Below the pieces are notes generated by a model. That model made no database searches, was not told the DNA's origin, and was given only the letters and a program-made list of their open reading frames with translations. This document shows, piece after piece, positions 61,149 through 64,000 of a DNA stretch of 64,000 nt (position 1 is the first letter of the stretch; every line of letters begins with the position of its first letter). This stretch comes from Escherichia phage 04086. The stretch is from the sequence record OR842557. One strand, written 5' to 3'. A program made the translations under genes and the position numbers.

Positions 61149-61423
61149 TTGAAGATATCAAGGGTTACAAACCACATACCGACGATAAAATCGGTAAAGT
61201 GAATGCTATTAAAGATGCCGAAATTCGGTTAGGGCTGATGTTTAAAGCTCTAGAAGAAGAACATGTTACCTATTATATGAACTTAGATACCGAAGAGGTT
61301 TCTGAACAAGAACTAGACCAGGCTCATGAACGCATTACCCAGATTCGTAATGCAATTGACCGTCTTAAAGAAGCTAGTATGTGGGCTTGTCGTTCTGTGT
61401 TCCAACCAGAAGAAAAGTACTAA
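61145..61423 (+). CDS. Hypothetical protein
   Basis: 92 aa coupled ORF. Confidence 0.45.
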   Translation: MIEDIKGYKPHTDDKIGKVNAIKDAEIRLGLMFKALEEEHVTYYMNLDTEEVSEQELDQAHERITQIRNAIDRLKEASMWACRSVFQPEEKY

Positions 61424-61427
61424 AGCA

Positions 61428-61478
61428 GTTTACATCTCCTGTAGACGTGGTACTATAGACCTATCAACTACAGGAGAT
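61428..61478 (+). promoter_or_regulatory. Early promoter stem-loop cassette, near-identical to 58812-58860
   Basis: agcagtttacatctcctgtagacgtggtactatagacctatcaactacaggagatta. Confidence 0.6.
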
Positions 61479-61484
61479 TACAAA

Positions 61485-61943
61485 ATGTCAGAAATTAATT
61501 CAGAAGTATTCATCCGCCGCAACAAATTACGTCGTCAGTTCGAAACCGAATTCCGCGAACTGAATGCGTCCATCAAAAAAGCCGCCATTAAGAGCGGAGT
61601 CCCAGCCTTCTTTATTAAGTACTCTAATCACTTGTTAGACCGTGCTATCCAACGTGAAATCGACGAAAAATACGTTTTTGCTTTATTCAAGCAACTCCAT
61701 AACCATGTTAAAGAAATTCATGAATTTTTAATCCAGGAACCTCTGCCTGATGTAGAATCCGAAATTGTCCCTGGTAAAGTGTATCGCCCATTGCGTCTCG
61801 AAATTACCGATAAAACCTTATGGTTGGGTATGACCGTAGACCGTAAACATCCTGATAAAGGATACTCGTTAAAATGTCGTATGGCATTTGTTAACTCTAA
61901 ACGTTTAGAAGGTAAAACCAGCACGAAAGTAATTTACTTGTGA
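61485..61943 (+). CDS. Hypothetical protein
   Basis: ORF track 61326 overlaps the promoter; ATG at 61485 (MSEINSEVF) after RBS caggagatta; 152 aa. Confidence 0.45.
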   Translation: MSEINSEVFIRRNKLRRQFETEFRELNASIKKAAIKSGVPAFFIKYSNHLLDRAIQREIDEKYVFALFKQLHNHVKEIHEFLIQEPLPDVESEIVPGKVYRPLRLEITDKTLWLGMTVDRKHPDKGYSLKCRMAFVNSKRLEGKTSTKVIYL

Positions 61944-61950
61944 GGACAGT

Positions 61951-62685
61951 ATGGAAACTATAAAATATCCATATGACTACTATAAAATAATAAATGACGC
62001 CTTATCTAGGGATACACCTAATGATGCCTATACAGAAAAGCACCATATAATACCGAGTTGCGTTGGTGGTCCTGACACTCAAGACAATTTAGTTGAGCTT
62101 TATGCTGACGAACATTATTTGGCCCATATGTATCTAGCCAAAGCTAATCCAAACCACTATGGGTTGAATTTTGCTTGGCTAAATATGAGCTCTACTTCAA
62201 ATTCAAAACAAAGGTCTTATTTTGTAGATTCTGAAAATTATAAGTTGGCTAAAGAATCATTTTCAAAATTGCAATCTATTAATAAAATTTTATTTTTCTC
62301 TAAAAAGGAAAATAGGGCTGCTCATTCAATGGCTTTAATAAAGTATTTTGAAAAGGAAGGCTCTAAAGAACGGCTCAAAGAAATTTTAAATTCGCCAAAA
62401 GTAAAAGCTAAAATGTCTGAAAAACGGGTTAAGTATTTTGAAAATCCTGAAAATAGACAAAAATTTAAAGCCATACAAAATTCTAAAGAAACTATAGAAA
62501 GGAAAAAAGCCTCTTTGCGGAAATCCCCTATATGGCATGAACCGATGTATTCACAATTATATAAATTATGGGTAGATAATAATAAACTCAAGTGTGGAAG
62601 ATTTAGTAAAATCGCAATTAAGAACGGCTTCCCTAATGTAGATTACCGAGGACTTATTGATTATGATTTTTCTAAAAAAACTTAA
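61951..62685 (+). CDS. HNH homing endonuclease (third copy, more divergent)
   Basis: Motif EKHHIIPSCVGGPDTQDNLVELYADEHYLAH; basic Lys-rich C-terminal half. Confidence 0.7.
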   Translation: METIKYPYDYYKIINDALSRDTPNDAYTEKHHIIPSCVGGPDTQDNLVELYADEHYLAHMYLAKANPNHYGLNFAWLNMSSTSNSKQRSYFVDSENYKLAKESFSKLQSINKILFFSKKENRAAHSMALIKYFEKEGSKERLKEILNSPKVKAKMSEKRVKYFENPENRQKFKAIQNSKETIERKKASLRKSPIWHEPMYSQLYKLWVDNNKLKCGRFSKIAIKNGFPNVDYRGLIDYDFSKKT

Positions 62686-63220
62686 ATATTCTTTAATAGT
62701 GGCTATTATGTGTGGTTCGTTTTCTGTAAGTGCAGCAGAACCCGTATTTACAGAAACCCAGCTTGATAATTTACATTATGCGTATGCTTTCGGTGAACAA
62801 TACCAAAAGTCGGGAAAGTTCAAAGAAACCCCTAATCAAAAAGGATTAGGATATATCATGGCCGGATTACTATGGCAGGAATCATCCGCCGGAATTAATC
62901 AAGGTTTAAATAAAGATAAGCACCATGCTTATGGCATGTTCCAAAATTACTTGCCTACGTTAAGAAGTCGTGTTCAACAGGTAGGTTGGAAGATGTCTGA
63001 TAAAGAAATAATTCGTATGGTCCAAAAACGACAGAACAGTGCCTCTTGGGCCTACATTGAGCTGTCTTATTGGATTGATGTTCACAAAGGTGACCTGAGA
63101 AAAGCGATTGCTTCTTATAATGCGGGCTGGAACGTCAAAGCAGGCAGTAAGTATGCTTCTGAAGTTCTAGAAAAGGCCAATTACCTAAAATCTAAAAAGA
63201 TGTTTGAGGCGGTATATTAA
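62663..63220 (+). CDS. Lytic transglycosylase (SLT domain) with N-terminal signal peptide
   Basis: Signal-like MIFLKKLKYSLIVAIMCGSFSVSA; SLT motifs LWQESSAG (catalytic Glu), YGMFQ, SYNAG; ORF track start 62657 is TTG. Confidence 0.75.
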   Translation: MIFLKKLKYSLIVAIMCGSFSVSAAEPVFTETQLDNLHYAYAFGEQYQKSGKFKETPNQKGLGYIMAGLLWQESSAGINQGLNKDKHHAYGMFQNYLPTLRSRVQQVGWKMSDKEIIRMVQKRQNSASWAYIELSYWIDVHKGDLRKAIASYNAGWNVKAGSKYASEVLEKANYLKSKKMFEAVY

Positions 63221-63577
63221 ATGATTAAGCAGATGACTATAGCGCTTATGTTGATTGCTCCGGGAGTATTAGCGTCACAAGTTGATGATAGTAATAATTC
63301 AATTGTCGAGTATGCTACCCGTACAGCAAAAGATTATTGTCATCCGAGTAATACTGAATGCATTATCGAATTCAGTTCAAAAATCACAGCTGCTTTTAAA
63401 GATGGCCAGAATGACGTAGAGCATCGCCGAATGAAAGAGAAAACTCTTTCTAAAAGATACGAGCAACGTCTAAACGTTACTGAATGTATTCCGTCTGATA
63501 AAAAGTACAAAGAAATGTGCGCGTCTATGGTAGACAGACTCGTTGACTCTTACAACCGAGGATTAAACTCTAAATGA
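63221..63577 (+). CDS. Small secreted / periplasmic Cys-containing protein
   Basis: Signal peptide MIKQMTIALMLIAPGVLAS; four Cys in mature part; coupled to the SLT gene. Confidence 0.5.
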   Translation: MIKQMTIALMLIAPGVLASQVDDSNNSIVEYATRTAKDYCHPSNTECIIEFSSKITAAFKDGQNDVEHRRMKEKTLSKRYEQRLNVTECIPSDKKYKEMCASMVDRLVDSYNRGLNSK

Positions 63578-64000
63578 TTATTGATTATATTAAGGGCGAT
63601 ATTGTCGCCCTGTTTCTTCAAGGTAATAATGTTGCGCACGGGTGCAACTGTTTCCACACAATGGGTTCAGGCGTAGCTGGACAATTAGCTAAGGCTTATC
63701 CGCCTATTCTCGCTATTGATAAAACCACTTATTTAGGCCATTTGGAAAAACTTGGCACGTTTACTCAAGCCACAGGTAATAAGGGCCAAATTTGCTATAA
63801 TTTATACACCCAATACGAACCGGGCCCTAATCTTGATTACGGTGCTTTAGTAAACTGTATGATAGAATTAAACCGTACCGCAAAGGGTCTTTTGTTTAAA
63901 CCAAGAATTTATATCCCTCGCATCGGTTGTGGTATTGCTAGTGGTGATTGGGACAAGGTTTATCAATTGATTAATTTGTTTACTCCTGATATTAATTTAG
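63574..64000 (+). CDS. Macro-domain protein (ADP-ribose binding / hydrolase family), C-terminus beyond window
   Basis: GDIVALFLQGNNVAHGCNCFHTMGSGVAGQLAKAYP parallels the macro motif GDIT..VNAAN..LGGGVAGAI; second motif IPRIGCGIASG; ATGA overlap with upstream stop. Confidence 0.7.
   Translation, partial: MIIDYIKGDIVALFLQGNNVAHGCNCFHTMGSGVAGQLAKAYPPILAIDKTTYLGHLEKLGTFTQATGNKGQICYNLYTQYEPGPNLDYGALVNCMIELNRTAKGLLFKPRIYIPRIGCGIASGDWDKVYQLINLFTPDINL

Follow-up and report, generated by a model that had tools for sequence, protein, structure and literature searches.

Two adjacent open reading frames at positions 62663–63577 of the stretch of DNA analysed here (the window; 64,000 nucleotides of Escherichia phage 04086, sequence record OR842557) correspond, judged by gene order and protein identity, to the T4 early genes vs.1 and vs, of which they are the orthologues in a Dhakavirus. 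We consider it probable that, taken together as one reading, the two genes are these orthologues, Vs.1 is a GH23-fold protein acting on the cell wall, both proteins are exported by Sec, and Vs is a disulfide-bonded protein of the periplasm. The pair consists of known genes and is ordinary for T-even phages, and as a finding about the window itself, a standard T-even vs.1–vs pair matters little. Few uncharacterised early genes of T4-like phages are conserved as widely as vs.1, which has homologues in ~2000 phage records and very probably encodes an exported enzyme of the cell wall that is produced well ahead of lysis. The export-like features of the Vs family present a real puzzle when set against the only role described for it, binding of the cytoplasmic valyl-tRNA synthetase (ValRS), and amount to a conflict with its annotation.

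The vs.1 and vs genes of a Dhakavirus

The window is Dhakavirus DNA (JS98/Bp7-like T-even phages): megablast matched it to Dhakavirus phages at 94–98% identity, with regB, vs.1, vs and tk.4 annotated under the match. The locus contains the following genes.

61951–62685, + strand: HNH homing endonuclease gene (PHROG 655, E = 3e-36)
62663–63220, + strand: vs.1 orthologue, encoding a 185-residue precursor of a predicted exported single-domain GH23 (SLT / goose-lysozyme fold) peptidoglycan glycosidase
63221–63577, + strand: vs orthologue ('valyl-tRNA synthetase modifier' family, Pfam PF26829), encoding a 118-residue precursor of a predicted four-helix protein of ~100 residues
63574–64000, + strand: tk.4 macrodomain gene, running past the window end (Pfam Macro, E = 4.6e-7; synteny with T4 tk.4)

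The gene order regB–(HNH insert)–vs.1–vs–tk.4 corresponds to regB–vs.1–vs–tk.4 in T4 and Bp7, and the position of the vs.1 reading frame between regB and vs is conserved in both phages. Comparison with the T4 genes at 61386–62271 upheld the orthology in gene order and in protein identity, which is 59% for Vs.1 (global alignment) and 45.8% for Vs. A homology search, as proposed in the original prediction, thus found T-even orthologues of both genes, and the statement made there that no such pair occurs in T4 proved wrong, since vs.1 and vs are adjacent in T4, in the same regB–vs.1–vs–tk.4 order and with an 8 nt overlap.

The HNH homing endonuclease gene sits between regB and vs.1, and its 3' end shares 23 nt with the start of vs.1. 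It is missing from Bp7 and from most Dhakaviruses, the whole query being covered in only 4 of the 78 matching records. Downstream, the vs ATG lies directly 3' of the vs.1 TAA, the tk.4 start overlaps the vs stop codon (ATGA at 63574–63577), and overlaps are common to most genes of the vs.1–vs cluster. The translational coupling suggested earlier for the pair is not evidence of a partnership between Vs.1 and Vs, since tight spacing is general in this cluster. The adjacency of vs.1 and vs is conserved synteny and in itself no sign of joint function.

A sigma-70-like site was found upstream of regB, and a search directly upstream of vs.1 found no MotA-type middle promoter. In T4, vs and vs.1 give early RNA and middle-phase protein, and infected cells have been found to contain both the Vs.1 and the Vs protein (PMC9697503 supplement). 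The T4 product Tk.4 has been named AdfM, an anti-DarTG2 factor (10.1101/2025.11.20.689424).

A predicted lysozyme-like fold in Vs.1

The vs.1 reading frame extends from an ATG at 62663 to the stop codon at 63218–63220, and its product carries WQESSAG at residues 71–77, YGMFQ at residues 90–94 and SYNAGW at residues 151–156. These coordinates and motifs confirm the original description of the first reading frame, an SLT signature behind a predicted signal peptide, and its product is supported as an SLT/GH23-fold enzyme with an export signal. The predicted catalytic residue is encoded as follows.

62879–62881, + strand: codon of Glu73, the predicted catalytic acid in the WQESS motif, invariant in 43 homologues and aligning with the SRES region of goose-type lysozyme

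Residues E73, Q94, Y152, N153 and G155 are invariant among the 43 homologues, which reach down to 36% identity. The segments E73-S74-S75, G91-M-F-Q94 and S151-Y-N-A-G155 correspond to the catalytic Glu-Ser, GLMQ-like and AYNAG-like motifs of GH23/SLT proteins, and the predicted structure has their lysozyme-like alpha-helical catalytic fold. Comparison of sequence and structure places Vs.1, as a protein of one domain, in the GH23 lysozyme-like fold, which is that of the family-1 lytic transglycosylases and the goose-type lysozymes; by its sequence it may be either a lytic transglycosylase or a hydrolase.

The window Vs.1 scores 15.9 bits against Pfam SLT (PF01464), under the gathering cut-off of 21.3; 39 of the 43 family members match the same profile at E ≤ 0.01 (best E = 1.3e-7), and several relatives carry a precomputed PF01464 match. 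The vs.1 family HMM scored T4 Vs.1 at 1e-87, and tblastn gave Tequatrovirus matches at ~61% identity and vs.1 homologues in 2009 phage records. Homologues of vs.1 also occur in Ackermannviridae and Felixounavirus. When the family profile was compared with PDB sequences, goose-type lysozymes were matched weakly (E 0.15–0.9), at a level useful only for motif alignment, with WQESS aligned to their catalytic region; a single-sequence search of PDB chains with Vs.1 gave chance matches only. Structure prediction, another step proposed earlier, produced a lysozyme-like Vs.1 model for which MltD, LtgA and Slt were the top Foldseek matches (probability up to 0.99, all E-values >0.01). NCBIfam holds no family for Vs.1 or Vs.

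The SLT similarity of vs.1 has reportedly been in print since 2003 and 2006. With both genes named, this similarity already published (PMC1524935) and vs a classical gene, the pair is largely one of known, characterised T-even genes.

Predicted export signals in both proteins

Vs.1 and Vs each begin with a predicted Sec signal peptide.

62663–62737, + strand: predicted Sec signal peptide of Vs.1, residues 1–25, cleaved after Ala24 or Ala25 (n/h/c architecture; pLDDT about 50)
63221–63274, + strand: predicted Sec signal peptide of Vs, residues 1–18, cleaved between VLA and SQV (n/h/c architecture; pLDDT <50 for residues 1–21)

Signal peptides were called from n/h/c architecture and conservation. 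A heuristic scan covering 43 Vs.1 and 26 Vs homologues showed this architecture, in divergent sequences, for all full-length members of both families. The N-terminus of Vs.1, MIFLKKLKYSLIVAIMCGSFSVSAA followed by EPV, combines a basic n-region with an h-region of 17 uncharged residues, and the -3/-1 residues are small; that of Vs is MIKQMTIALMLIAPGVLA followed by SQV. In Vs, the signal segment is the least sequence-conserved part of the protein, with the architecture kept in all 26 homologues; distant family members also conform, and one of them (P0121) has a lipobox, LSGC. For the window Vs.1, IMC at residues 15–17 prompted the idea of a lipoprotein, which was rejected because Met at -1 is unfit for a lipobox. 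AF2 leaves the N-termini of both proteins unstructured. T4 Vs.1 and T4 Vs also have signal-peptide-like N-termini, the predicted mature N-terminal peptides being SEHTFSNVQLDNMR for T4 Vs.1 and ADTSYTEIR or SADTSYTEIR for T4 Vs.

The sequence of the Vs.1 signal segment has no relationship to its counterpart in Bp7 and JS98 vs.1, and at the DNA level homology to Bp7 sets in again only 3' of it. Read from this comparison, the HNH insertion swapped the signal-peptide coding segment of vs.1 for unrelated sequence that again encodes a predicted signal peptide. With export signals on both, Vs.1 and Vs are predicted to be periplasmic. Full-length T4 Vs carrying an N-terminal His tag was insoluble (PMC8076793), and our literature search found no paper tying Vs to a signal peptide or to the periplasm.

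A four-helix model of Vs with paired cysteines

The second reading frame was originally described as encoding a small signal-peptide protein with four cysteines, which our data bear out, the cysteines being conserved. Vs has exactly four (residues 40, 47, 89 and 100), all within the mature part, and they are invariant in 26 homologues as well as in six more distant ones, with loop lengths in the family varying as CX5-10C and CX8-10C. Their codons are located as follows.

63338–63361, + strand: Cys40 and Cys47 codons, flanking the helix1–helix2 loop (invariant; helix positions from the AF2 model)
63485–63520, + strand: Cys89 and Cys100 codons, flanking the helix3–helix4 loop (invariant; helix positions from the AF2 model)

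The AF2 model (pLDDT 79) has helices at residues 23–39, 45–67, 73–89 and 94–115, and thus depicts Vs as a four-helix protein with two invariant cysteine pairs, one per helical-hairpin loop. These loops are predicted to lie at one end of the bundle, an arrangement in which a cytoplasmic Vs could also hold a metal. Foldseek with the Vs model against the PDB gave no match at E<1, only generic helical bundles at E>2, and a single-sequence search of PDB chains gave chance matches only.

Vs belongs to PHROG 1256 (E = 3.2e-34), and all its homologues carry a precomputed PF26829 match. Homologues of vs were found by tblastn in 795 phage records. A profile search with the Vs alignment, covering 1.84 billion representatives, returned only 8 matches. 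Several candidate relationships were set aside: a POC3_POC4 Pfam match (E 0.077) is noise; P0119, a protein of 3694 residues with perfect tandem repeats, is taken to be spurious, its score summing 17 weak repeat matches; P0118 and P0120 are truncated or chimeric Vs fragments. The conserved residues, the number of homologues and the detection of the T4 proteins indicate that the features of Vs.1 and Vs are not due to chance.

Possible roles of Vs.1 and Vs in the infected cell

In the reading that we prefer, transcription of vs.1 and vs would begin early, at the promoter region that precedes regB, and Sec would export the two products with cleavage of their signal peptides. Mature Vs.1 (~18.5 kDa, pI 9.4) would then cut MurNAc–GlcNAc bonds of the infected cell's own sacculus in early to mid infection, most likely as a lytic transglycosylase, and would serve limited wall remodelling or priming rather than final lysis, for which the enzyme is gp e. 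Mature Vs (~11.6 kDa) would fold in the periplasm with two disulfides, and the ValRS-binding annotation would need a cytoplasmic pool of Vs. Superinfection exclusion, lysis timing, or an enzyme with its inhibitor, as originally proposed for the pair, would be candidate roles.

Classically, the vs product is described as a factor bound to cytoplasmic ValRS. It is conceivable, if somewhat unlikely, that this annotation is sufficient, Vs being a cytoplasmic protein that binds host ValRS, with an N-terminus used inefficiently or not at all for export, and vs.1 an unrelated neighbour. All database annotation agrees on this role (PHROG 1256; Pfam PF26829, 'ValRS_modifier'), host ValRS binding by Vs is cited from Müller & Marchin 1975 and 1977 (PMC8076793), and T4 Δvs is defective in minimal medium only, where the cell makes its own amino acids, with a plaque defect in M9 glucose (10.1101/2025.11.20.689424). 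A defect specific to M9 speaks at least as much for a role in amino-acid supply or tRNA charging as for one in the envelope. Mature T4 Vs is predicted to be 11.1 kDa, near the size of the purified ValRS-modifying factor, which we take to be roughly 10 kDa; a match of this kind fits processed Vs, and processing would imply export. A cytoplasmic Vs does not readily account for the canonical n/h/c signal peptide with AxA-type sites present in every family member in its least conserved segment, for the lipoprotein lipobox of one member, for four cysteines that stay invariant despite variable loop lengths, or for an N-terminus that AF2 does not pack into the fold. The clean phenotype of T4 Δvs makes this conflict over the localisation of Vs directly testable.

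T4 e mutants generally do not lyse, and Vs.1 therefore cannot replace gp e under standard conditions, which argues against Vs.1 being an accessory lysis enzyme, pre-positioned in the periplasm, that speeds holin-triggered lysis or helps when gp e is limiting. A muralytic fold with an export signal, the neighbourhood that vs.1 shares with e and rI in T4-like phages and a published analogue, the secreted, early-transcribed Tgl of staphylococcal Kayviruses (PMC7150955), would suit such an enzyme, whereas expression is early rather than late and the literature searched reports no phenotype for vs.1. Kutter's 2018 review mentions neither vs.1 nor vs. Overall, we regard an accessory role in lysis as unlikely.

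Also quite improbable is the combined reading that Vs, whose label as the modifier of cytoplasmic ValRS is some fifty years old, is in truth or in the main a disulfide-bonded protein exported to the periplasm and works there with Vs.1, for example as an inhibitor or regulator. If so, the function now assigned to the vs reading frame would be mistaken, or Vs would bind ValRS only secondarily or in extracts, and unrestrained Vs.1, acting on the envelope, would be behind the minimal-medium defect of T4 Δvs. In its most specific form, in which Vs would be a dedicated regulator that binds Vs.1 and restrains or targets its muralytic activity, with the ValRS label misassigned, secondary or in-extract, the proposal draws on the prediction that the two proteins coincide in compartment and in timing. 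Additionally, vs is either the next gene after vs.1 or two genes off in every locus examined, namely those of T4, Bp7, RB49, Acj61, KP27 and two metagenomic contigs (Vs-first and vs.1-first searches), and by tblastn Vs is restricted to Straboviridae, vs.1 being more widespread. In transposon profiling of T4, vs was the most strongly depleted gene in M9 and vs.1 went unmentioned (10.1101/2025.11.20.689424), the imbalance that an inhibitor–enzyme pair should show, and T4 annotation offers a precedent for misassigning exactly such a function in gene 40, noted as 'misidentified as spackle gene'. However, vs.1 occurs without vs in an Aeromonas Biquartavirus, in Ackermannviridae and in Felixounavirus, which means that the enzyme can do without Vs; close packing is general in the cluster; a tRNA-charging role would explain an M9 phenotype just as naturally; and Vs resembles no solved inhibitor, a relationship to T4 Spackle having been rejected by hhalign (probability 0.8%). 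We regard a dedicated regulatory pairing as doubtful.

Comparison with known systems

The closest comparison for Vs.1 and Vs is with the T4 proteins. T4 Vs.1 (NP_049725, UniProt P13311) is like the window protein over the whole mature part, the 59% identity including the motifs WQESS, YGMFQNYLPT and SYN[AS]GW, and has the same length and a signal peptide; the first 25 residues, forming the signal peptide, are unrelated between the window Vs.1 and those of T4, Bp7 and JS98. T4 Vs (NP_049724, UniProt P13310) shares with the window Vs the four cysteines, the C-terminal motif SMVDRLVDSYNRGL, the location between vs.1 and tk.4 and a signal-peptide-like N-terminus; the first cysteine loop is one residue longer in the window (CX6C, compared with CX5C in T4).

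Small exported proteins paired with lysozyme-fold enzymes, as in T4 Spackle–gp5, PliG–goose-type lysozyme and the T6SS Tse3–Tsi3 pair, whose genes are adjacent to each other, offer possible analogies for Vs and Vs.1, although Vs resembles neither Spackle nor any solved structure in sequence or fold. Among GH23 proteins (Slt70, MltC, MltE, MltF, EtgA and goose-type lysozymes), the Glu-then-Ser, GxxQ and YNAG-type motifs are shared with Vs.1, as is a periplasmic location, predicted in the case of Vs.1, and MltE and EtgA are likewise small single-domain proteins. Identity to these enzymes is only 12–20% and the window Vs.1 lies below the Pfam SLT cut-off; unlike the Mlt enzymes it lacks a lipobox, and it is phage-encoded and expressed early. 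Kayvirus Tgl (PMC7150955) differs from Vs.1 in its Gram-positive host and in its demonstrated muralytic activity, which for Vs.1 is predicted only; it is secreted by the host machinery and is likened to Vs.1 by its features, being phage-encoded, with a signal peptide, lytic-transglycosylase motifs and early-type transcription.

Orthology to T4 vs.1 and vs

The 62663-63577 stretch contains two ORFs on one strand and in one shared reading frame, and the original prediction described both in agreement with the sequence. They lie within a cluster of early genes, with the following neighbours.

Features around vs.1 and vs in the window
61951-62685, + strand: HNH homing-endonuclease gene between regB and vs.1, 244 aa (PHROG 655, E=3e-36)
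62663-63220, + strand: vs.1 ORF, 185 aa (ATG 62663, stop 63218-63220)
63221-63577, + strand: vs ORF, 118 aa (ATG 63221, directly abutting the vs.1 TAA)
63574-64000, + strand: tk.4 macrodomain gene, cut by the window end (Pfam Macro E=4.6e-7; ATGA overlap on the vs stop codon)

When 61900-64000 was compared with phage genomes by megablast, identity was 94-98% to the Dhakavirus phages PSD2002, IME540, NC-G, Bp7, JS10 and IME08, whose records carry regB, vs.1, vs and tk.4 annotations beneath the match. The order in T4 is likewise regB-vs.1-vs-tk.4, with an 8-nt overlap of vs.1 and vs, and in global alignments the window proteins are 59% (Vs.1) and 45.8% (Vs) identical to their T4 counterparts. 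The two ORFs are orthologues of these named T4 genes. Since T4 carries the same gene order and similar proteins, the earlier view that the pair is absent from T4 was wrong: the pair is real but already known, and the case for its novelty rested on that error about T4.

The 3' end of the HNH gene overlaps the start of vs.1 by 23 nt. This gene is missing from Bp7, and the whole query including it is covered by only 4 of the 78 matching phage records. At the other end of the pair, just within the 5' end of tk.4 and 16 nt past the vs stop codon, we observed a terminator-like GC-rich hairpin (63593-63611, + strand; AGGGCGATATTGTCGCCCT then GTTTCTTC). T4 Tk.4 has been named AdfM, an anti-DarTG2 counter-defence factor (2025 preprint, 10.1101/2025.11.20.689424).

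Vs.1 as a predicted GH23 enzyme

Vs.1 contains the motifs WQESSAG (residues 71-77), YGMFQ (90-94) and SYNAGW (151-156). In a Pfam scan its SLT score was 15.9 bits, below the gathering cut-off of 21.3, and its PHROGs family, 600, is labelled 'unknown function'. Among 43 aligned homologues, down to 36% identity, residues E73, Q94, Y152, N153 and G155 are invariant, and a Pfam SLT hit at E<=0.01 (best 1.3e-7) is present in 39 of them. When the family profile is compared with goose-type lysozymes, WQESS lines up with their catalytic SRES region, and the best Foldseek matches to the AlphaFold2 model (pLDDT 86) are lytic transglycosylases, with probability <=0.99 but E>0.01. Vs.1 is therefore a small single-domain GH23 protein with a conserved catalytic motif, bearing out the SLT-type enzyme first proposed, and its sequence would be compatible with a lytic transglycosylase or a hydrolase alike. 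A marginal SLT likeness of vs.1 was reported by Nolan et al. 2006 (PMC1524935), where PSI-BLAST matches published earlier with the T4 genome are cited as well.

Export signals in both families

Signal peptides were called by a heuristic n/h/c feature scan across all homologues of both families. Every full-length Vs.1 and Vs member has 1-3 Lys/Arg within the first few positions, an uncharged h-region of 11-21 residues and, around positions 17-25, small residues at the -3/-1 sites. In the window, Vs.1 opens with MIFLKKLKYSLIVAIMCGSFSVSAA followed by EPV, and Vs with MIKQMTIALMLIAPGVLA followed by SQV; the T4 proteins also open with signal-peptide-like N-termini (MRKALLAGLLAISMMAHS followed by SEH, and MTKILVLCIGLISFSASAS followed by ADT). 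The signal peptides originally suspected in both proteins are thus an architecture kept family-wide. The segment itself has the lowest sequence conservation in each alignment and is without structure in the AlphaFold2 models. Predicted mature Vs.1 has ~160 aa (18.5 kDa, pI 9.4) and mature Vs ~100 aa (11.6 kDa).

Two cases support real export. At the HNH insertion the signal-peptide-coding segment of vs.1 has been wholly replaced, and the new, unrelated sequence again forms a signal peptide. In the distant Vs relative P0121, a lipoprotein lipobox (LSGC, residues 13-16) stands in place of the AxA site.

Locus of P0121
L004 4401-4727 (Logan SRR27558799 contig): P0121, on a metagenomic T4-like contig, directly after a vs.1 homologue with 1-nt overlap

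A narrow four-cysteine family

Vs belongs to a narrow family. Word-indexed searching yielded 28 proteins, and Pfam PF26829 (ValRS_modifier) is present on all Vs homologues; among 1.84 billion representatives, a family profile gave only 8 matches, two of them fragments and one a repeat protein that we judged spurious. With three divergent members as queries, the tblastn hits all fell in Straboviridae: ~795 records belong to the T4/Dhakavirus type, ~350 to the RB49/Acinetobacter type and 176 to the KP27/RB43 type.

The AlphaFold2 model of Vs (pLDDT 79) has four helices (23-39, 45-67, 73-89 and 94-115), with Cys40/Cys47 flanking the first hairpin loop and Cys89/Cys100 the third. These four cysteines, singled out in the original prediction, are invariant, including in members at ~25% identity, with variable loop lengths (CX5-10C, CX8-10C), a pattern that would be more in keeping with disulfide staples than with a fixed metal site. 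Foldseek of the model against the PDB gave no meaningful structural relative, and we found no relationship of Vs to Spackle, the T4 periplasmic lysozyme inhibitor. An 85-aa Vs variant in Escherichia phage vB_EcoM_005 (P0005) lacks residues 36-68, including the first Cys pair, and is otherwise nearly identical to the window Vs; its origin would be either a genuine deletion, in a gene that the phage can do without, or an error of assembly or annotation.

Location of Vs

The predicted export of the Vs family stands in conflict with its annotated target, valyl-tRNA synthetase (ValRS), which is cytoplasmic. The purified ValRS-binding factor was ~10 kDa, closer to the predicted mature form of T4 Vs (11.1 kDa) than to the precursor (13.1 kDa). 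Genetic interactions with valS(ts) hosts have been reported, which would speak for a true action in the cytoplasm. The annotation, found everywhere for Vs, refers to Müller & Marchin 1975 and 1977, as relayed in PMC8076793, and the role of ValRS modification is 'not known' according to the 2025 preprint, in which vs was depleted in M9 glucose, compared with LB, more strongly than any other T4 gene and a clean T4 Δvs showed a plaque defect in M9 only (10.1101/2025.11.20.689424). This restricted defect fits a role in tRNA charging. All full-length Vs family members bear the export-signal architecture, and we find it doubtful that Vs acts in the cytoplasm only, as annotated. Full-length Vs carrying a His tag proved insoluble when made in E. 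coli (PMC8076793), an outcome to be expected of a blocked signal peptide, though as evidence it is weak. We found no discussion of this signal peptide in the searchable literature; T4 annotation holds a precedent for such a misassignment in gene 40, noted as 'misidentified as spackle gene'.

Relationship between vs.1 and vs

At every examined locus with vs, vs.1 was close by: directly upstream in T4, Bp7, RB49, Acj61 and two metagenomic contigs, and two genes off in KP27. vs.1 homologues are also present, with no vs detectable at all, in an Aeromonas Biquartavirus, in Ackermannviridae (Det7) and in Felixounavirus (wV8).

vs.1 homologues in Det7 and wV8
L010 1495-2112: Salmonella phage Det7 gene 70
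L011 1501-2094: Escherichia phage wV8 gene 3

The Det7 and wV8 proteins have 3-4 Cys in the mature domain, and the window and T4 Vs.1 none. In Aeromonas phage avDM2, with no vs directly after vs.1, a 146-aa ORF two genes 3' of vs.1 (L008 2356-2796) starts with a hydrophobic segment that closes in MYGC, an imperfect lipobox, and has two more Cys; HMM comparison revealed no relation to Vs.

Neighbouring genes of the early cluster as a rule abut or overlap stop to start, vs and tk.4 included (ATGA 63574-63577), so the translational coupling originally noted carries no specific meaning. T4 vs.1 and vs share their timing, with early RNA and middle protein (PMC9697503 supplement). Together, the predicted shared periplasm, this timing and the kept adjacency make a functional link possible. 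The M9-only phenotype of Δvs could also fit lost restraint on a periplasmic wall enzyme, but it fits a tRNA-charging role as well, and Vs as a dedicated regulator of Vs.1 seems improbable, an estimate separate from, and not exclusive of, that for a purely cytoplasmic Vs.

Proposed role

The picture that we consider likely for these orthologues is that both proteins would be exported by Sec and their signal peptides cleaved. From early or mid infection on, Vs.1 would make limited cuts in the infected cell's own peptidoglycan, remodelling or priming the wall rather than performing terminal lysis, which is the step of gp e, the T4 lysozyme; Vs would undergo oxidative folding in the periplasm. What remains of interest is the predicted location of Vs against its classical function, a conflict that is now easily testable. 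Among known enzymes, MltE and EtgA resemble Vs.1 in size and architecture.
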